Part shown: one piece after another, positions 2,910-10,427 of the stretch
How the letters are laid out: every line of letters begins with the position of its first letter
Position numbering within the stretch: position 1 is the first letter of the stretch
Source: a virus
Lineage: Duplodnaviria; Heunggongvirae; Uroviricota; Caudoviricetes
Reading direction: 5' to 3' (one strand)
IMG/VR virus record: IMGVR_UViG_2537561977_000019
Span: 1-19,354 of that record
DNA: 19,354 nucleotides
The notes under the pieces: model-generated
The model's input: only the letters and a program-made list of their open reading frames with translations
What the model was told of the DNA's origin: nothing
Database searches by the model: none
Position numbers and translations under genes: made by a program

Positions 2910-3662
2910 TTATCTTGTCACTTTTCTCAATTGTGTCTCTGCATATGCTTCTTCCTGCCAGCACTTTGTAACCAGTTTATCAATGACATCTGCATATCCT
3001 TTGTACCACTGATAATCCGTCAGATCCGGTACCAGCTTCTGGACATGATGCCGCGCCAGTGTGGTTGGTAAACGGCTAAACCGGTTTCCATTGCAACGCC
3101 CACAAATCTTATAAACAGGCGCACCATGAAGCCGGGTTCTTTTTTCATCCAGTACAATACCTTTCCCCTTACACCCTCTACACGCTGTGCTGACCTCTCC
3201 CTTACCATGACAATGCTGACATAGTTCCTTCACCCACTCTTCCTTGATAACAGATTCCCCGCTTCTGGAGTGTTTCACCACTTCGCGCAATACATTATGA
3301 AATCCAGTACCAGCACAATGCTCACAGCGAGCCTTACTTGCCGCAGACCTGGAATAATCAGCAAAGGCAAAATTCACAAGGTAAGGGATGATCTGTAACC
3401 GGGTTTCTTCACTCAATTTGTTCAATGTCGGGTTATCCAGTGCCATCGCGTAATTGAGCAGACCTTCAATCGCAAACTGAGGATCCTGAACACCAACTTT
3501 TGCCAGGAATAAGGCAAACCCAAGCGGTGCTTTCGACTGCACCATCCCCTGCGCAGCCATTACATCCGTAATTGTTAAACCACCAGAGCCTGTCGCCGGT
3601 GCGTCATCGCTCAATTTTGGAGATTTTGGGGAGTAATATTTCGGTAAGGCTTCAAGGTTCAT
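2910..3662 (-). CDS. Q-type late antiterminator (about 250 aa, Cys-rich)
   Basis: Several CxxC pairs (CEHCAGTG, CQHCHGKG, CRGCKGKG, CGRCNGN). It is the last gene before the pR'/tR'-like pair and the lysis genes. ATG at 3662 has a GGAG SD 7 nt upstream; the ORF track's upstream start at 3692 is TTG and overlaps the preceding gene. Confidence 0.7.
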   Translation of the reverse strand: MNLEALPKYYSPKSPKLSDDAPATGSGGLTITDVMAAQGMVQSKAPLGFALFLAKVGVQDPQFAIEGLLNYAMALDNPTLNKLSEETRLQIIPYLVNFAFADYSRSAASKARCEHCAGTGFHNVLREVVKHSRSGESVIKEEWVKELCQHCHGKGEVSTACRGCKGKGIVLDEKRTRLHGAPVYKICGRCNGNRFSRLPTTLARHHVQKLVPDLTDYQWYKGYADVIDKLVTKCWQEEAYAETQLRKVTR

Positions 3663-3675
3663 GCTCGTTCTCCAC

Positions 3676-4671
3676 TTACGCCAGCACGCCAATTGCCAGC
3701 GCGCGATCGATAAAACGAAATATCAGCTCCAGCTGGGAGCCATACTTCTCTTCAAATGCCACGGTATCCGCATGCAGCTCGTCGTGATGCTTTCTGCACA
3801 AAGGCAACACAAAGAGGTCATGCGCTTTTGTACCCATCCCGCCCTGACCGTGGCCTATCAGGTGGTGGGGATCATCAGCAGGCTTTCCACAACATGCACA
3901 CGGCTGCGTCTTAACCCAGCGCGTGTACTTTTCGTTAACCCAGCGGCGACGTTTTGGGCGTAACATAAAAGACTCCGGCGACTCCGGATCCACTTTCAGC
4001 GCCAGCACCTTTTTCGCTTTATCCTGGATGATGCTGGTGGCAGGAACCGAAGGCACAAGGTCACTTTCCCGGGTGACAGACGGCACAACAGGCTTCGGTA
4101 ATCTCAGTGCCTTACGGGCTGCACTTTCCGGTAAGGCATCCGCCAGGTCATTACGAACCAGCCACCAGCACAGTTCCGGCATTGTCACAACGTGACTATC
4201 ATCAAAACCGAGATCCCGACGCACGACAGACAACACCCAGCGGGCACAGTTATCCGTTGCCATTGATTCCAGCCGTTCCGTGAATTGATCGCGCAGCTGG
4301 TTATCGCAGTGCCAGCACAGACGGATTGCGCCCGGCGCGTGTCGCATTGTGGTCATGTTCTCGCTGTGCCAGTCGGAATGAGGCCACTGGCAGCCTTTTT
4401 CACGAAGTAACCAGCTTTCAAGACATTCCACCCCACCAGCACGACGGATCACTGCCTCATTGCGGAACACGGCCCGAACGGCAGGATCATCCGCCAGCGG
4501 TTGTGATGCCGCCGGAACGGCACCACTGGCGAAAGATGAATAACGTTCCGGCTCAGGCTCCAGCAGGACACGCCCCTGCATAAACAGGGGCATCAGCTCT
4601 GAACCTGGCCTGAACAATACGATCCCCATACGCGGGGCAATTTCAGGGGTCAGTAGTGCTCTCACGGTCAC
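3676..4671 (-). CDS. DUF968-family protein with an HNH-like C-terminal motif
   Basis: 331 aa; the C-terminus carries CACCGKPADDPHHLIGHGQGGMGTKAHDLFVLPLCRKHHDELH. GTG start at 4671 directly after the upstream stop. Typical nin-region gene. Confidence 0.7.
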   Translation of the reverse strand: MTVRALLTPEIAPRMGIVLFRPGSELMPLFMQGRVLLEPEPERYSSFASGAVPAASQPLADDPAVRAVFRNEAVIRRAGGVECLESWLLREKGCQWPHSDWHSENMTTMRHAPGAIRLCWHCDNQLRDQFTERLESMATDNCARWVLSVVRRDLGFDDSHVVTMPELCWWLVRNDLADALPESAARKALRLPKPVVPSVTRESDLVPSVPATSIIQDKAKKVLALKVDPESPESFMLRPKRRRWVNEKYTRWVKTQPCACCGKPADDPHHLIGHGQGGMGTKAHDLFVLPLCRKHHDELHADTVAFEEKYGSQLELIFRFIDRALAIGVLA

Positions 4672-6214: not shown

Positions 6215-6864
6215 GCCGCCATCTCCCTGACCAGTTTTTCCGCCTGCTGGCGAACCTGCGCCAGAAACGCCTCACCACATGCCTCAAGTTCATCGCGCCC
6301 GATGTAGCTGATTGCCGGTCCCTTCCAGGTCTTATCGAAAACAGCAATAGCACCAGCGAAGAAAGCGCCTGTCGGCACCTGCTTCTCATCCTTCGGGATA
6401 AACCAGGCAGGCAGTTCAAAACCAATACGCCCGCGAATAAAAGCAATATGGTCCGCATCTTCCGGCCACCACACTTCGCTGGTGGCAGCTTTGATCAGGA
6501 AAACATAGCGCCCACCCTTATCACGCATGGCACTGGCATGTTTCATGATGTAACGCATGCCGGTGATGTATTGCCCCTCATGCTGACTGGCGCGGCTGTA
6601 TGGGGGATTACCAAAGGCAGCCCCTTTAAGCTCCGCAAGACGTTCTGACCAGTCATGCGCCAGCGCGTTGTCTTCCGCCGTGTAATACGCAGCACATTTG
6701 GCGTTATCACCGTCAGTGAACAGATCCAGAACAAACGGGCCAAACAGGGTGTTAATTCCCCAGAAAATGTTGTCCGGCGTGCGCCACTGATCACCCACTT
6801 CCTTCAGTTCATGGGCTGGTTTGTTCCTCAGTTCCACCAGCTCCTGGCAATATTTATTACTCAT
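6211..6864 (-). CDS. Phage Dam-family N6-adenine DNA methyltransferase
   Basis: NPPY motif (AAFGNPPYS) in a ~217-aa protein. ATG at 6864 overlaps the upstream stop (TAATG); an alternative GTG lies at 6897. Confidence 0.8.
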   Translation of the reverse strand: MSNKYCQELVELRNKPAHELKEVGDQWRTPDNIFWGINTLFGPFVLDLFTDGDNAKCAAYYTAEDNALAHDWSERLAELKGAAFGNPPYSRASQHEGQYITGMRYIMKHASAMRDKGGRYVFLIKAATSEVWWPEDADHIAFIRGRIGFELPAWFIPKDEKQVPTGAFFAGAIAVFDKTWKGPAISYIGRDELEACGEAFLAQVRQQAEKLVREMAA

Positions 6865-7352
6865 TAAGCCCCCACGTAATTCCCTGACAGATACCACTCA
6901 TCACCCGATACAGCGCGCTTGCTGCTTTTCCGTAAACACTGCTCACGACGCGCCAGAAAATTGTTTCGTTCTGGCTGGGAGTGGCTTTCACGGAATGCCG
7001 CCATCCACACCGTTGCAGCACGACGGTATAAGCCCCTGGACTCCAGTTCTTCCGCCTGGCGGGTCAGGCACAAAATCACCCGGGGATCGTTAGTGCCGAC
7101 ATAGAAATTGCGCACAGGTCTGGTTTCACGAACTGGTTGTGGTTCCGGCTCCTGCGCTCTCTCAGTCAGGCGTGGGAAATGTCTGCGTGTATCTCCTTCA
7201 CAACGGTGAGCCACACGCCCACTCTGACGTAACTTGCTTGCTGACTGCAGAACGCGCTGCCGTGAGTAACCTGCAAAAGCATCCGCAATGTCTCCGGAAG
7301 TACACCCCGGATGGGCTTCAATGAATTTCTGAACGTCATTCAAAAGACTCAT
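6864..7352 (-). CDS. Hypothetical phage protein (about 162 aa)
   Basis: ORF starts 3 nt after the O-like stop (ATG 7352, AGGGG SD) and is coupled to the downstream Dam gene. Arg-rich; no confident family. Confidence 0.5.
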   Translation of the reverse strand: MSLLNDVQKFIEAHPGCTSGDIADAFAGYSRQRVLQSASKLRQSGRVAHRCEGDTRRHFPRLTERAQEPEPQPVRETRPVRNFYVGTNDPRVILCLTRQAEELESRGLYRRAATVWMAAFRESHSQPERNNFLARREQCLRKSSKRAVSGDEWYLSGNYVGA

Positions 7353-7354
7353 GA

Positions 7355-8173
7355 TCACCCCCTGAATCCTGCCGGGATCTGGCTGTAGTCCACGTTGTCG
7401 TAACTGGCTTTGAAGTACGGGTCCTCGCGTCTGGCTGCAGATACCGCAGGAACTTCCCAGGATTCTTCGAAATGACGATCCGGACCAAAGAACGTGACAG
7501 CCTGTTTCACAAATTGTGTGCCGCTGTTACCCATCGCAGATACCCAGCCCGCGTAGCGTTTCACACCTTCCAGCATGGTTTCGGGGTTTACCCCCTCATT
7601 CAAACGGGCTTTCCAGGCTTTGAAGGCTGCAGATTTTGAATTGCCACCAGCACGTTTGGGATAGGCCAGCCATGCCTGCTCAAACTCCGGAGAGTATTCC
7701 GGTCGGTTTGAACTAACTCGCACAGACTCATCAGCAGATGCACCAACAGCTATTGGTTCATTGACTGGTTCTTTGACTGGTTCAAAAGAGTGACTGGTTC
7801 TGGGTGAATCTCCTGCACTACCCCCTAGTGCAACTCCTGCACTACCTGGTGAATTTGCTGCACCAGATAGTGAATTATTTGCACTACCCCCTAGTGAATC
7901 TCCTGCACCATCCAGATGAAGGAGATAGATATTACTTGAGTTACCTTTTTCACCTTTCCGGGTGACTTTTTTTACCAGCCCGGACTCACAAAGGGCCGCA
8001 ATATGATTCATCACAGAACGTTTGCTAATCTCGCACTGGTCAGCAATATGCTGGTAGCTGGGCCAGCACTCACCCTGATCGCTGGCATTATCAGCCAGCT
8101 TGATCAGAACCAGTTTTCGCAATGGATTACCCACTCGAATTTTCATCGCTTTAACCATCAGCTCCATACTCAT
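7355..8173 (-). CDS. Replication initiator, O-like (N-terminal winged-helix, Gly/Ser/Ala-rich linker)
   Basis: N-terminus LRKLVLIKLADNASDQGECWPSYQHIADQCEISKRSVMNHIAALCESGLVKK resembles phage replication-initiator HTH domains. The linker is encoded by repetitive DNA, as iterons are in lambda O. ATG at 8173 in an ATGA overlap. Confidence 0.65.
   Translation of the reverse strand: MSMELMVKAMKIRVGNPLRKLVLIKLADNASDQGECWPSYQHIADQCEISKRSVMNHIAALCESGLVKKVTRKGEKGNSSNIYLLHLDGAGDSLGGSANNSLSGAANSPGSAGVALGGSAGDSPRTSHSFEPVKEPVNEPIAVGASADESVRVSSNRPEYSPEFEQAWLAYPKRAGGNSKSAAFKAWKARLNEGVNPETMLEGVKRYAGWVSAMGNSGTQFVKQAVTFFGPDRHFEESWEVPAVSAARREDPYFKASYDNVDYSQIPAGFRG
7761..7910. repeat. Iteron-like direct repeat cluster inside the O-like gene (candidate origin)
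   Basis: TGACTGGTTC occurs three times (7762-7771, 7774-7783, 7791-7800); GTGAATCTCCTGCAC twice (7804-7818, 7894-7908); TGCACTACCCCCTAGTG twice (7814-7830, 7880-7896); CTCCTGCACTACC also at 7835-7847. Confidence 0.5.
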
Positions 8174-8394
8174 GCTGCACCTCCGAGATGCTTCATGTTT
8201 TTTCCGGAGCGAAAGGCTATAAGCGGCATACTGACGCGGTAATTACGGCCCAGCGGTTCACAAATCACCTTCTGACATTCACGGTCAACCAGGCTAACAC
8301 GTAGAACATGCCCTGCAGGCGTGGTGTACCACTGACCCGGACGAGGACAACGGAAAGTCTGATTGGTAAAACGTTTGAAAATATTCCGGATCAT
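8170..8394 (-). CDS. Small hypothetical protein (74 aa), possibly DUF4222-like
   Basis: ATGA overlaps at both ends (8391-8394 and 8170-8173) place it in the coupled early-right operon. The family guess is from a weak motif memory only. Confidence 0.45.
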   Translation of the reverse strand: MIRNIFKRFTNQTFRCPRPGQWYTTPAGHVLRVSLVDRECQKVICEPLGRNYRVSMPLIAFRSGKNMKHLGGAA

Positions 8395-9554
8395 TTACGC
8401 CCCCTTACCTCTGAAGGGTTCAGCGACAAATTTATGAGACTGGCCAGTAGCGCCGCGTCGTTGATGCGGTCATACAGACTTACAGCCAGCGGGGATTCGG
8501 CTTTTGCCAACATGGGATAAAGCTGCTGCAGCCAGACCTGATGAATTGATGAAATGTAGGAATAGAGAACGCTGGCGTTATGTGCAACGTCGCTCAGTAC
8601 AGAGGGATTTGAAAGCTGTTTCTCCATCTGGTTAAAGGCATTGATGTATGCCTCTTTGAACCGGGCAGCACGTTTACCCGTGAAACCCATAGCAAGAAAC
8701 GCAAAGCCGTCGCGGGTTATTTGATAGCAAGGAAGTTTGCGAGTACCGCCGTTGGGCTGGCGTACCAAAATTGATGTCTCCGCAAAATTGCGGGCACAAA
8801 ACTCTGGAGAACAATCCAAAATGCGGATCTTTTTCAGAACATCGTCATGACGTTTAGAGAAGAAGTCAGCAACAGCCAAAGAAGATGTAACAGCCTGACC
8901 ATCAACGATGGCAATTTCAGGTTGAGAGAGGGTTGGGAGAGTAGTCATGGTGACAGCCCCGGTAGTCAGTTTTTTAGAAAACTCACCACATGGGACGCCA
9001 ATCACAGAGGTGGTGAGACGTACAGGGTTGGCGTTACCGGAGACTACCGAACCCGGCCCGACCGAAGTCGGCCCTGTACGCCCCACCATAATTTGGGCGT
9101 AGCAATGCTCATGACACGAAAAAACCGCATGAGCGCGGTTATGCTCAGTAATCAATTTCAGGACGCCAATCCCGGCACCCGTTTTATAAGGTGCCTGAAC
9201 AGTGTAACGTCCCGGAATGGCAGAATCAATGTGCTGGTGGTCCTTCACACTCAACAAAATCACGCCTGAATTTCCACAAAGGACTAAAGCACTCATGCGG
9301 GTAGTCTTTGCGAAGATAGATAACGCGCTGTGTTTCTGGCTCCCAACGAATAACATGAACATAAAGTCCTCTTCCGTCACGAAACCAGCGGTTAAGTTCC
9401 TGCACAACTCGCCCCCCACAGTCAGGTAAAGTTCTCTGTGGTTACTTACAGCCAGGTGATTTGGTAATCTGCATTCATGCCGTAACAACAGGTGTGCAGC
9501 GACACTGACCACCAGCTGTTGCGACAAACGGTTATTTGCCGTTAAACTGTTCAT
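8391..9554 (-). CDS. Rha-family regulatory-domain protein with a ~200-aa N-terminal extension of unknown function
   Basis: Residues ~205-330 match the Rha pattern (AVADFFSKRHDDVLKKIRIL ... RDGFAFLAMGFTGKRAARFKEAYINAFNQME). ATG at 9554 overlaps the upstream stop (ATGA) with a GGAG SD; the frame stays open for 387 codons. An internal ATG at 8948 would give an Rha-only protein. Confidence 0.6.
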   Translation of the reverse strand: MNSLTANNRLSQQLVVSVAAHLLLRHECRLPNHLAVSNHRELYLTVGGELCRNLTAGFVTEEDFMFMLFVGSQKHSALSIFAKTTRMSALVLCGNSGVILLSVKDHQHIDSAIPGRYTVQAPYKTGAGIGVLKLITEHNRAHAVFSCHEHCYAQIMVGRTGPTSVGPGSVVSGNANPVRLTTSVIGVPCGEFSKKLTTGAVTMTTLPTLSQPEIAIVDGQAVTSSLAVADFFSKRHDDVLKKIRILDCSPEFCARNFAETSILVRQPNGGTRKLPCYQITRDGFAFLAMGFTGKRAARFKEAYINAFNQMEKQLSNPSVLSDVAHNASVLYSYISSIHQVWLQQLYPMLAKAESPLAVSLYDRINDAALLASLINLSLNPSEVRGRK

Positions 9555-10135
9555 GCGTTAGTTTCTCCACAACCAGAAGCAATCGACGCCACGACGCCCG
9601 GAGCTGCACACTCGCGGGCGTTACTCTTTTCCGGCGCACAAAAAACACGAAATAACAGTGTTAAATGCTCCTGCCACTTCGCCATTACTTGGTAGCTGTT
9701 CTCTTCGATTTGCTCACGCTCAGCTTGGTCAATAACTCCATCAGCAGTTGCCTTGCGTAAGTACTGGGAATGCTTGCCAATCCATTCTATTGACTCCATC
9801 AGCCGCTGATTAATGTCACCATTGTCAATGTCATCAATGACCACCAGCGGCACAAACACCCCATTACTACGACGGGCTATTGCATCTGTTACATGCCTGG
9901 TACCACTGGCATCCTGTAAAACCATGGCCCACTCAAGTGGAAAAATTTGATCCCCACCGCTACGCAGTCTGTTATGCAATTGATCTTTTGCTGGGGTGAT
10001 ATCATCAGATTTATACAAACCAAGAATTTCTGCTGCTTCCTCATAGCCATGAGGTAAATCAGCAATCGTTCTTCGTATTGCTGCCACCAGCCATGCTGGT
10101 TGTTTATCAACTTTCCATTCAGGTTCTTTACCCAC
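9551..10135 (-). CDS. Regulator in the cII position (possibly YdaT-like), about 195 aa
   Basis: GTG at 10135 has a GAGGA SD 7 nt upstream and lies 28 nt after the cro stop. The ORF track's upstream ATGs (10246, 10213) have no SD and would overlap cro. Function is inferred from position only. Confidence 0.45.
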   Translation of the reverse strand: MGKEPEWKVDKQPAWLVAAIRRTIADLPHGYEEAAEILGLYKSDDITPAKDQLHNRLRSGGDQIFPLEWAMVLQDASGTRHVTDAIARRSNGVFVPLVVIDDIDNGDINQRLMESIEWIGKHSQYLRKATADGVIDQAEREQIEENSYQVMAKWQEHLTLLFRVFCAPEKSNARECAAPGVVASIASGCGETNA

Positions 10136-10163
10136 GGTTAATTCCTCATTTCTGTGGTTACGT

Positions 10164-10427
10164 TTACGCAGCTGAACCGCTAACTTTTGAATAGCACTCA
10201 GGTAATCCATCATTTGGATTGGGGTAAATATCAGGACGCAGTTCATGAGGGGTCACGGACCAGTTTCCCAACTCACAAAGTTGTAAAACCCGTTCTGACG
10301 GGACTTGATTGTTAATTACCCAATTAGCGACGGATTGAGTGGACTTAAAACCAAAGCGACGGGCTACTTCAGATAAAGATTTTCCCGCAGCTTTTACTGC
10401 TTTCTCTGTGTAGTTTTGAGATGACAT
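10164..10427 (-). CDS. Cro-like HTH regulator (YdaS-like)
   Basis: 87 aa with an HTH segment (LSEVARRFGFKSTQSVANWV), divergent from the CI-like gene; GAGGAG SD before the ATG at 10427. Confidence 0.75.
   Translation of the reverse strand: MSSQNYTEKAVKAAGKSLSEVARRFGFKSTQSVANWVINNQVPSERVLQLCELGNWSVTPHELRPDIYPNPNDGLPECYSKVSGSAA

Follow-up and report, generated by a model that had tools for sequence, protein, structure and literature searches.

The immI region of phages P1 and P7 (c4-icd-ant1/ant2) encodes the C4 antisense RNA, which gave the Rfam family its name and is processed from the transcript that carries its targets. In P1, C4 recognizes the target sites a1/b1 and a2/b2 and blocks a ribosome-binding site upstream of the antirepressor, and Ant1 and Ant2 are nested long and short forms of the antirepressor in one frame. 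In P4, the nested eta/kil genes overlie the seqA and CI RNA immunity genes (Forti et al. 1999, as summarized in PMC10111431). Rfam C4 and isrK matches also occur inside Bro-network genes (PMC10111431). In Gifsy-1, orf45 was shown experimentally to be translated inside the RNA region, to be coupled to the antirepressor, and to be switched by IsrK (Hershko-Shalev et al. 2016, PMC4825925). The locus described here lies in a 19,354-nt stretch of DNA from a virus of the Caudoviricetes (IMG/VR record IMGVR_UViG_2537561977_000019; the whole stretch is referred to as the window). Judged from its sequence, its layout appears to be the one already described for the P4 eta/kil genes. It is likely that the locus consists of a P4-eta-like read-through ORF fused in frame to Rha, forming an RNA-controlled antirepressor module, and the best explanation of this module is that it belongs with the P4-type (eta/kil-CI), Gifsy-1-type (isrK-orf45-anrP), and P1-type (c4-ant) modules.

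An initial reading of the DNA, made without database searches (the sequence-only reading), had reported a 387-codon ORF carrying Rha in its C-terminal half, with a Shine-Dalgarno sequence and an ATGA overlap to the upstream gene. All of these features were confirmed (Table 1). The sequence GGAG at 9568-9565 lies 10 nt 5′ of the start codon (ATG 9554-9552), which overlaps the TGA stop of ymfL (junction sequence, TAACGCATGAAC) and is 360 nt upstream of the isrK 5′ end. Overlaps of 4 nt chain the genes of this operon, and the long ORF leaves the chain unbroken, the 74-aa ORF being the next link toward the replication gene. The Rha domain was placed at residues 223-312 of the long ORF by PF09669 (E 1e-26), and residues 214-315 passed the cut-offs of both PF09669 (93.7 bits versus 29.9) and TIGR02681 (90.3 bits versus 45.95). 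Single-sequence AlphaFold2 prediction of the 387-aa protein gave a pLDDT below 50 at every residue, including the Rha control domain; the protein homologues usable for a structure-prediction alignment were all at least 96% identical. An opposite-strand ORF of 140 aa at 8847..9269 (plus strand) had no family match and was rejected.

Table 1. Features at the long ORF, in window coordinates
Feature	Coordinates	Strand	Evidence or remark
YmfL-family putative regulator gene (upstream context)	9551..10246	minus	NCBIfam NF041471, E 1.4e-53
Long ORF, eta-like/Ash segment in frame with Rha	8391..9554	minus	387 codons
Long-ORF codons 1-50	9406..9554	minus	No other feature found
Nested DUF4222 gene, 59 aa	9226..9405	minus	PF13973, E 9.5e-14; GTG start after GGGGGG
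Putative PisrK promoter	9201..9229	minus	-35 TTGATT 9229-9224, 17-nt spacer, -10 TACACT 9206-9201, +1 at 9194
IsrK/seqA-type sRNA	9118..9194	minus	Rfam RF01394, 60.1 bits versus gathering score 50
C4/CI-type antisense RNA	9006..9093	minus	Rfam RF01695, 82.3 bits versus gathering score 45, full-length
Downstream antisense targets	8958..9001	minus	b2 UUGGCGU 9001-8995; a2 GACUACCGGG 8967-8958
Rha-type antirepressor core, 185 aa, from ATG 8948	8391..8948	minus	PF09669, E 3e-27, and TIGR02681
74-aa ORF (downstream context)	8170..8394	minus	ATGA-coupled to the Rha stop

The N-terminal part of the ORF had been described as a region of unknown function that matched nothing recognizable. Instead, its frame runs over a DUF4222 gene, a putative promoter, and two RNA genes, and it yields matches to Phage_ASH, to the Rfam C4 (82 bits) and isrK (60 bits) families, and to the nested DUF4222. 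The DUF4222 gene (PF13973, 51.1 bits versus a cut-off of 27; phrog_1343, E 1e-36) overlaps long-ORF codons 50-110 in another frame (offset +1), and RefSeq annotates it as a separate gene. Over this segment, pN/pS was 0.14 in the DUF4222 frame versus 1.58 in the long frame. A more divergent comparison, with K-12 and a Stx1a phage, gave a pN of 0.10-0.29 at saturated pS (0.71-0.91) and an amino acid identity of 59-83% in the DUF4222 frame; the long-ORF/YmfM frame in the same comparison had a dN/dS of 1.6-2.0 and an identity of 31-47%. The DUF4222 protein is the selected product over codons 50-110.

Further along, residues 117-212 match Pfam Phage_ASH (PF10554, the family of P4 Eta) at 43.6 bits versus a cut-off of 26, covering profile positions 1-105 of 107. 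This Ash "domain" is essentially what results when seqA/IsrK-type and CI/C4-type RNA genes are translated, and reasoning from domain architecture therefore misleads in proteins of this kind. Nor was the architecture new, as the sequence-only reading had suggested: both the exact 387-aa protein and the Ash-plus-Rha arrangement are already in the databases, the former in NCBI, and the best 120 listed clusters are all Ash plus Rha. Its His/Cys-containing stretch FSCHEHCYAQ is indeed present (residues 145-154) and is the translated tail of the IsrK terminator together with the 5′ flank of the C4 gene.

Both RNA genes lie on the same strand inside long-ORF codons 121-183, and both exceed the Rfam gathering thresholds in the window and in nine related loci, including Gifsy-1 and P4. 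IsrK carries an a1 site (9153-9143) and a b1 site (9169-9163) and ends, according to a terminator scan, in an intrinsic terminator with a stem at 9140-9123 followed by a U run. In C4, the a′ loop reads UUCGGUAGUC (9051-9042), and ACGCCAA (9034-9028) forms the b′ single strand. These are complementary both to a1/b1 in IsrK and to a2/b2 near the Shine-Dalgarno sequence of ATG 8948, the a2 site overlapping this GGGG Shine-Dalgarno sequence. Across nine loci, a1/a′/a2 and b1/b′/b2 showed three-way covariation, with seven a-types and four b-types. Cognate pairing scores were 9.6, 8.7, and 7.0 versus 4.3-4.7 for noncognate pairs, and a′·a2 scored 9.6 versus 4.7. The Rfam c4-a1b1 model reached 21.7 bits in the window, below its threshold of 46.7. 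The sequences of the covarying sites allow heteroimmune specificity types to be assigned.

Because the target sites beside its Shine-Dalgarno sequence covary across the nine loci, ATG 8948, which opens the 185-aa Rha, is predicted to be the RNA-controlled start. It aligns with the P4 kil start in both position and sequence (MATTLTPSHPE versus MTTLPTLSQPE). A second conserved AUG, at 9089-9087 inside C4, is in the long-ORF frame and is the counterpart of the Gifsy-1 orf45 start. Forms of 387, 232 (from AUG 9089), and 185 aa are possible from this one frame.

A putative PisrK promoter was placed on the basis of its position and conservation. Gifsy-1, P4, P88-like, and Stx phages all have a TAnAnT hexamer with this spacing from the isrK 5′ end, and no segment of the alignment varies less than the promoter segment (0.15 changes per site). 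Its -35 element overlaps the DUF4222 stop codon. A sigma-70 promoter scan of 8800-9700 reported no site, because the 8 of 12 consensus positions present in the candidate fall below the scan threshold. The candidate would be the analogue of P4 PLE.

Several observations suggest that the long frame is kept open by selection. First, the 202-codon extension has no stops in the long frame, compared to 16 and 11 in the other two frames, in line with the sequence-only reading, which had noted that the first 200 or so codons are open. Mononucleotide shuffles of the extension had a mean of 9.4 stops, and only 0.01% had none. A swap-based dinucleotide shuffle (mean of 4.3 stops; 1.5% with none) mixed poorly and was unusable, and the mononucleotide shuffle and the comparison of polymorphic stops are the valid tests of openness. 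Second, the extension frame is free of stops in all 52 distinct relatives with 80-99% identity, where about 10 stop-creating changes were expected. Columns with polymorphic stops numbered 0 in the long frame versus 16 and 15 in the other frames, and the null model proved well calibrated on those two frames, with 20.9 stops predicted and 19 observed. Third, all five indels are multiples of 3, including the four of four within the extension, some of which fall outside other coding or RNA features. Fourth, in 7 of 11 contexts a script found a start that overlaps or abuts the upstream stop, with P4 as an eighth found by hand; these contexts include tandem second copies and involve four different, unrelated upstream genes.

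Similar trends were apparent in a sample drawn independently of the ORF, consisting of 71 C4 cassettes. The long-type frame is open through isrK in 53 of these, compared to 27 and 19 for the other frames, and it enters the next gene in 51, compared to 7 and 0. Thirty-one of the 51 long ORFs begin -4 to +15 nt from the upstream stop versus 8% of random ATGs. In L032, the frame stays open across a foreign insertion of about 550 nt. In view of the stop avoidance, the multiple-of-3 indels, and the recurrent start-stop coupling, the long frame is judged not to be accidental and the extension is probably translated, as the sequence-only reading had proposed.

The peptide itself shows a different pattern. 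Besides the 1.58 over DUF4222, pN/pS in the long frame was 1.21 over isrK, 0.67 over C4, and about 1 or higher over the linker, versus 0.24 for the Rha part. The amino acid sequence of the extension is unconstrained across DUF4222, IsrK, and C4, and the peptide appears unselected, with pN/pS reaching or exceeding about 1 over DUF4222, isrK, and the linker. Conservation of the N-terminal region holds for its openness but not as purifying selection on amino acids over DUF4222, isrK, and C4. Within the extension, only codons 1-50 give a hint of amino acid constraint, with a pN/pS of 0.35 in the long frame, no third-position bias, and one 6-nt indel.

An alternative that we regard as unlikely is that no protein is made from the long ORF, which would be a by-product, and that the real genes are DUF4222, IsrK, C4, and the 185-aa Rha (perhaps with the 232-aa form from AUG 9089), with openness arising from nucleotide conservation and a stop-poor +1 frame. 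The lack of amino acid constraint over most of the extension fits this explanation, as does the habit of PGAP of trimming the gene to about 300 aa and annotating DUF4222 apart. The GC content of C4 (61%) lowers the chance of a stop, and stop avoidance could stem partly from conservation at the RNA level and from the inherently stop-poor +1 frame of genes. In addition, Gifsy-1 and about 25 to 28% of the sampled cassettes lack a continuous frame and have a short leader ORF in its place, which means that frame continuity is not obligatory. Separation of the two parts by a stop in related phages was to count against the sequence-only reading, and this applies in part: the frame is broken in Gifsy-1 and in roughly a quarter of the C4 cassettes, and in none of the 52 relatives. 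However, stops in the other frames vary freely in the same columns and at the rate that the null model predicts, and none of those expected in the long frame occurred. The multiple-of-3 indels outside other features, the survival of the frame across the insertion in L032, and the placement of the start on the stops of four unrelated upstream genes also argue against a by-product.

Another possibility, which we consider improbable, is that the N-terminal ~110 residues are a functional YmfM-like cell division inhibitor domain joined to Rha in a two-function protein. Residues 1-89 align with YmfM of the K-12 e14 prophage (BLASTP E 3e-9, 32% identity, over 99 residues), and phrog_1170 matches residues 47-98; no curated profile model exists for YmfM. 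The two loci share the upstream gene ymfL and an ATGA-coupled MNSLT start, and K-12 ymfM is equivalent to the initial ~100 codons of the long frame, again with a DUF4222 ORF overlapping it. The K-12 frame, however, is closed by a stop after 112 codons and is followed by degraded sequence. A search of e14 for isrK and C4 at E values up to 0.1 found neither, and ymfM itself is therefore not RNA-overlapping. YmfM is the SfiC division inhibitor. The hint of constraint on codons 1-50 favors a functional domain, and cells expressing a ymfM clone become filamentous (bioRxiv 10.1101/2020.11.19.390815). The ymfM ORF that was cloned includes nearly all of the DUF4222 ORF as well, so that the phenotype could stem from either frame, and the named K-12 cell division inhibitor might have to be reassigned. 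The similarity to YmfM lies mostly where both ORFs overlap DUF4222, whose frame is under strong purifying selection, whereas the YmfM frame has the high dN/dS and low identity given above, and a Stx1a relative lacks segment A entirely.

The proposal that two genes were merged in one genome, by a frameshift from sequencing or assembly or by a recent mutation, has nothing in its favor beyond the unusual length and can be set aside. Of 5,426 complete E. coli genomes, 513 contain at least 80% of the ORF, which excludes a sequencing indel. The same 387-aa protein, along with over 100 clusters nearly identical to it, is found on many independent contigs and complete genomes, and phages mEp460, 1720a-02, and Stx-converting phages share the frame. 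As for the parts occurring apart from one another, DUF4222 alone, isrK and C4 with other effector genes, and Rha without Ash were all found elsewhere.

The reading of the locus as an eta-like ORF fused to Rha under RNA control draws directly on the RNA genes, the nested DUF4222, the covarying targets at the Rha ribosome-binding site, the openness of the frame, the start-stop coupling, and the Ash homology to P4 Eta. The module lies in an E. coli lambdoid prophage, where ymfL and the replication gene flank it within the early-right operon. An internal promoter just past DUF4222 would produce the IsrK-like sRNA, and read-through and processing would produce the C4-like RNA. C4 would then pair with a2/b2 right upstream of ATG 8948 and mask the Shine-Dalgarno sequence, preventing translation of the 185-aa Rha antirepressor in the lysogen; if P4 is a guide, the paired transcript may additionally be exposed to Rho-dependent termination. 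IsrK could act as a competitor for the C4 loops involved. The 387-codon frame, the presumed counterpart of P4 eta, begins upstream of the putative internal promoter, ATGA-coupled to ymfL, and reaches Rha after passing through DUF4222 (in the other frame), this promoter, IsrK, C4, and the a2/b2 sites. When transcription starts at the upstream early promoter, ribosomes translating this frame may block RNA folding and pairing and exclude Rho, and early transcription and Rha synthesis would then evade the RNA immunity switch. Selection would act on the openness of the frame and not on the peptide sequence, a pattern that lends indirect support to the proposed escape from Rho-dependent termination.

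A more specific proposal, which we offer only tentatively, is that one ORF laid over DUF4222, a promoter, and two RNA genes, selected for nothing but openness, acts as a translational bridge. Ribosomes coupled to ymfL would carry early transcription across about 600 nt, overriding the C4/IsrK switch and Rho, and the long Rha isoform would be made only on induction. If true, this may be a general design rule for C4-type cassettes of lambdoid prophages, about 70% of which have such a frame, and a corollary is that the K-12 SfiC/YmfM filamentation may belong to the nested, strongly conserved DUF4222 protein. More broadly, enterobacterial-prophage proteins of about 280 to 390 aa annotated as "Rha/Ash family" conceal two RNA genes and often DUF4222 as well. 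The P4 eta/kil logic, in which translation across an RNA immunity cassette would decide whether the cassette can act, appears to be widespread in E. coli lambdoid prophages, Stx-converting phages included, and how such phages control the antirepressor matters for prophage induction and for cross-talk among prophages.

Compared to P1/P7 immI, the C4 a′/b′ sites with a1/b1 upstream and a2/b2 downstream were all located here, and the possible 387-, 232-, and 185-aa forms resemble the nested Ant1 and Ant2. Unlike in P1/P7, there is no separate icd ORF between 9006 and 8948, only an in-frame continuation. The resemblance to Gifsy-1 isrK-orf45-anrP includes IsrK with its terminator, a following C4-type RNA (STnc1160 in Gifsy-1) and then an antirepressor, the same a/b pairing logic, and the conserved AUG in the C4 5′ stem, which in Gifsy-1 is the experimentally used start of orf45, a gene lying within the C4 gene. 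However, orf45 terminates within an AUGA that overlaps anrP, and with the frame shifted across isrK, Gifsy-1 has no continuous ORF, whereas the frame from AUG 9089 runs 47 codons into ATG 8948 without a stop. The window frame that ends at an ATGA near the Rha start is closed 20 nt upstream, and there is no orf45-type leader. The antirepressors also differ, AnrP matching PF10543 ORF6N rather than PF09669, and the Gifsy-1 module follows antQ, outside the early-right operon.

The layout also resembles that of P4, whose Eta is a full-length Phage_ASH member (E 4.5e-23, 82.2 bits). The P4 ORF (8168..8812) reads through isrK/seqA and C4/CI in the same frame as the window ORF, and its last 65 aa begin at the equivalent of ATG 8948. 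The P4 figures of 65 aa (Kil) and 197 to 199 aa agree with our analysis of this ORF. Both ORFs start before the internal constitutive promoter (putative in the window) and are ATGA-coupled to the upstream gene, the MMM start in P4 falling on the ORF88 stop by coordinate arithmetic. Both contain a nested downstream start at the homologous position with an antisense target beside its ribosome-binding site. BLASTP of the whole window protein against P4 Eta was not significant (E 0.55), with negligible similarity outside the RNA-encoded stretch, and the homology is visible only by the Pfam profile and by nucleotide/RNA alignment. The interval between seqA and CI is about 110 nt longer in P4. Unlike the P4 ORF, the window ORF additionally overprints a DUF4222 gene and belongs to a lambdoid prophage, in which ymfL and the replication genes lie on either side of the module. 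Finally, the P4 frame ends in the 65-aa Kil, whereas here it runs on into a full Rha-domain antirepressor.

Analysis of the minus-strand long ORF placed the Rha domain at residues 223 to 312 (Pfam, E = 1e-26; NCBIfam TIGR02681 concurs), in the C-terminal half of its 387 codons, as the sequence-only reading had described. Also borne out were the translation signals and the open N-terminal region that it had pointed to. A GGAG lies 10 nt 5′ of the ATG (9554 to 9552), an ATGA links this start codon to the TGA that ends the upstream gene, and the 606-nt extension upstream of the Rha ATG at 8948 contains no stop in the long frame compared to 16 and 11 in the other two; mononucleotide shuffles averaged 9.4 stops, and only 0.01% had none. 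The upstream gene encodes YmfL (NCBIfam, E = 1.4e-53). Its ORF as mechanically listed overlaps a cro-like ORF by 83 nt, the NCBIfam YmfL model begins only at residue 54, and relatives are annotated at 183 to 185 aa; the real ymfL start is probably further downstream. NCBI already lists proteins identical to the long form (EFZ60034.1 among them), and the PHROGs entry for this form is phrog_821. Both PF09669 and PF10554 occur in 120 of 120 clusters among those listed, and at least 80% of the long ORF is found in 513 of 5,426 complete Escherichia coli genomes.

The extension had been thought to match nothing recognizable. It is instead an assembly of known elements: two RNA genes, a DUF4222 ORF, and a Phage_ASH match lie within it, so it is not unrecognizable. 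The peptide FSCHEHCYAQ is the IsrK terminator tail and C4 5′ flank, translated. The PF10554 (Phage_ASH) profile itself approximates the translated seqA/IsrK and CI/C4 RNA genes plus the kil/ant start (window, 8919 to 9206; P4, 8330 to 8704), and RNA-level constraint probably lies behind much of its conservation.

Features of the window in and around the long ORF
Feature	Position	Strand	Evidence or remark
Long ORF, 387 codons	8391..9554	minus	ORF listing
C4 antisense RNA	9006-9093	minus, as long ORF	Rfam, 82.3 bits, above gathering score
IsrK sRNA	9118-9194	minus, as long ORF	Rfam, 60.1 bits, above gathering score
IsrK intrinsic terminator	stem 9140-9123	minus	followed by U run
DUF4222 ORF, 59 codons	9226-9405		frame other than long ORF's; E = 9.5e-14; phrog_1343, E = 1e-36
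Phage_ASH match	long-frame residues 117-212		Pfam, 43.6 bits (cutoff, 26)
ymfL ORF as listed, 231 aa	region 9551-10427	minus
PerC-family transcriptional activator homolog	6864-7358	minus	PF06069, E = 1e-9; directly 3′ of replication gene
Four-tRNA cluster of the prophage (Gly-UCC, Thr-UGU, Arg-UCU, Met-CAU)	896-1205	minus	typical of lambdoid/Stx phage late region

Selection was compared by reading frame in 52 distinct relatives (80 to 99% identity) picked solely on similarity to the Rha part. Rha in its own frame gave a pN/pS of 0.24. The DUF4222 bases gave 0.14 in the DUF4222 frame compared to 1.58 in the long frame, and the long-frame values were 1.21 for isrK, 0.67 for C4, and 0.87 for the linker. 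Only codons 1 to 50 of the extension hint at constraint (0.35), without a third-position bias. The more divergent comparison of the window, K-12, and an Stx1a phage gave pS of 0.71 to 0.91, pN of 0.10 to 0.29, and 59 to 83% identity in the DUF4222 frame, and dN/dS of 1.6 to 2.0 with 31 to 47% identity in the long frame. Therefore, the extension is not a conserved protein domain.

The long frame is nevertheless NEVERTHELESS kept open; its openness, not its sequence, is conserved. First, across segments A to G, no polymorphic stop column fell in the long frame compared to 16 and 15 in the other frames, and the observed substitutions were expected to yield about 10 stops in the long frame but yielded none. 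For the other frames, the null model behind this expectation proved well calibrated (19 observed versus 20.9 expected). Second, all five indels were multiples of 3. Four are within the extension, and two of these, of 6 nt at ∼9504 and of 3 nt at ∼9116, lie in no other feature. Third, each of the 85 copies examined has at least 100 open codons 5′ of the Rha ATG. In locus L032 (2059 to 3558), the frame stays open through a ∼550-nt foreign insertion, for a total of 499 codons; this insertion comprises an in-frame Rha C-terminus remnant and then an AT-rich stretch. Fourth, 71 distinct C4 cassettes were drawn by DNA pattern, independently of ORFs. In 53 of them, the reading frame set by the conserved C4 AUG crossed isrK without a stop (other frames, 27 and 19), and in 51 it continued into the following gene (other frames, 7 and 0). 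About one-quarter of the cassettes, Gifsy-1 included, have a closed frame and a short leader ORF instead. Finally, the long-ORF start lies −4 to +15 nt from an upstream stop in 31 of the 51 (21 as ATGA), compared to 8% of random ATGs. By script, the long-ORF start overlaps or abuts the stop of the upstream gene in 7 of 11 contexts, the partner being ymfL (window, L032, and L067), a 235-aa DNA-binding protein (Stx1a phage), a 99-aa gene (P88-like), or another Rha copy (tandem arrays). By coordinate arithmetic P4 is an eighth case, the ORF88 stop being overlapped by the first codon of the MMM start.

The RNAs carry matching sites. The C4 hairpin-2 loop UUCGGUAGUC (9051 to 9042) is complementary both to GAUUACUGAGC in IsrK (a1, 9153 to 9143) and to GACUACCGGG (a2, 8967 to 8958), which overlaps the GGGG Shine-Dalgarno sequence of ATG 8948. 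The C4 single strand ACGCCAA (9034 to 9028) is likewise complementary to UUGGCGU of the IsrK loop (b1, 9169 to 9163) and downstream (b2, 9001 to 8995). This arrangement conforms to the classic C4 design. In a comparison of nine loci (window, Gifsy-1, P4, P88-like, Stx1a, Stx2a, and three IMG/VR types), the a and b sites change in concert (seven a-types and four b-types), and cognate pairings score 9.6 (a′·a2), 8.7 (a′·a1), and 7.0 (b) compared to 4.3 to 4.7 for noncognate ones. Because the sites covary and a2 lies on its Shine-Dalgarno sequence, ATG 8948 (185-aa Rha) is identified as the putative RNA-controlled initiation site. The conserved C4 AUG at 9089 shares the Rha frame, the 47 codons between them contain no stop, and therefore nested products of 387, 232, and 185 aa are possible, reminiscent of P1 Ant1/Ant2. 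A promoter with +1 at 9194, the Rfam 5′ end of IsrK, is plausible: TTGATT, a 17-nt spacer, and TACACT stand 7 nt from it, and a TAnAnT hexamer occurs at equal distance from the isrK 5′ end in Gifsy-1, P4, and the other loci of the comparison. The promoter scan did not call this candidate, which matches 8 of 12 consensus positions.

We propose, as the most likely mechanism, that in the lysogen the internal promoter would yield IsrK and, via read-through and processing, C4, which would mask a2/b2 and the Shine-Dalgarno sequence of ATG 8948 so that no Rha is made; the untranslated transcript would likely be terminated, by analogy with P4. Upon derepression of the early promoter, translational coupling to ymfL would send ribosomes along the long frame, across DUF4222, IsrK, and C4, and on into Rha. 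Their transit would block RNA folding, pairing, and Rho loading, an antitermination role that we infer, and would preserve the chain of 4-nt start/stop overlaps of the early-right operon (6864 to 10246, minus strand). This chain comprises ATGA at ymfL/long ORF, long ORF/orf74, and orf74/O-like replication gene and GTGA at O-like/PerC-like gene. In this scheme, the RNA genes, their target sites, the maintained frame, and the start-stop coupling are established by the present analysis, and the promoter and the translation of the long form are predicted.

Comparison with relatives, as suggested by the sequence-only reading, showed that the region is built of modules that also occur apart. In phage genomes, BLAST found the DUF4222 core on its own in Klebsiella and Shigella phages and the isrK-C4 block on its own in Stx2a phages, P88-like P2-type phages (counterpart annotated "similar to ash family protein"), and Gifsy-1. 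Downstream of the block, Gifsy-1 has an ORF6N-domain antirepressor, not Rha. In e14-like prophages, what follows the shared upstream part of the region is a 67-aa non-Rha protein. The promoter-isrK-C4-Rha block is tandemly repeated in several IMG/VR loci, with its boundary at the DUF4222 stop (window ∼9230 to 9240). Tandem arrays, each with two or three isrK-C4-antirepressor cassettes, occur in L041 (1895 to 2080 and 2758 to 2946), L010, L108, L109, L122 (three copies), and L169. Within an array the a-loop specificities differ (for example, CAUGUGCGA and CCGUUGAC in L041) and the b site is identical, and the first copy's stop carries the ATGA start of the second copy's long ORF.

The e14 gene ymfM of E. 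coli K-12 ("cell division inhibitor," SfiC) is homologous to the opening ∼100 codons of the long frame (E = 3e-9). At this locus (L211; NC_000913.3, 1200500 to 1205500), ymfM (3323 to 3681; window ∼9554 to 9226) fully overlaps an unannotated DUF4222 ORF (3502 to 3681) in another frame, and purifying selection in the overlap is on the DUF4222 frame. Because the published filamentation clone (bioRxiv 10.1101/2020.11.19.390815) included both ORFs, DUF4222 may be responsible for the phenotype, and its attribution to ymfM merits frame-specific scrutiny.

Among the closest known systems is P4, whose minus-strand ORF 8168..8812, eta with kil nested within, spans isrK/seqA (8615 to 8692) and C4/CI (8420 to 8507) in the same frame, like the long ORF. 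Its product matches Phage_ASH over the full length (E = 4.5e-23), and the last 65 residues start MATTLTPSHPE, aligning with MTTLPTLSQPE of the window. According to the part of PMC10111431 that cites Forti et al. 1999, a constitutive promoter lies within eta, its transcript is terminated via CI/seqA interactions, and Kil is a truncated product. The same paper includes Phage_ASH and Phage_pRha among "Bro network" domains and reports Rfam C4 and isrK matches inside Bro-network genes. In Gifsy-1, IsrK turns on orf45, which is translated and has its translation coupled to that of the antirepressor AnrP (PMC4825925). By the present analysis, orf45 is located within the C4 gene and starts at the conserved AUG equivalent to 9089; whereas the window frame runs from this AUG into Rha without a stop, the Gifsy-1 frame is closed and leaves orf45 as a short leader ORF. 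For P4 the design principle has already been published, and it has been noted for PICIs as well. What may not have been stated previously is that in lambdoid prophages a full Rha antirepressor is joined in frame to an eta-like ORF that overprints a DUF4222 gene, and that openness rather than sequence is conserved.
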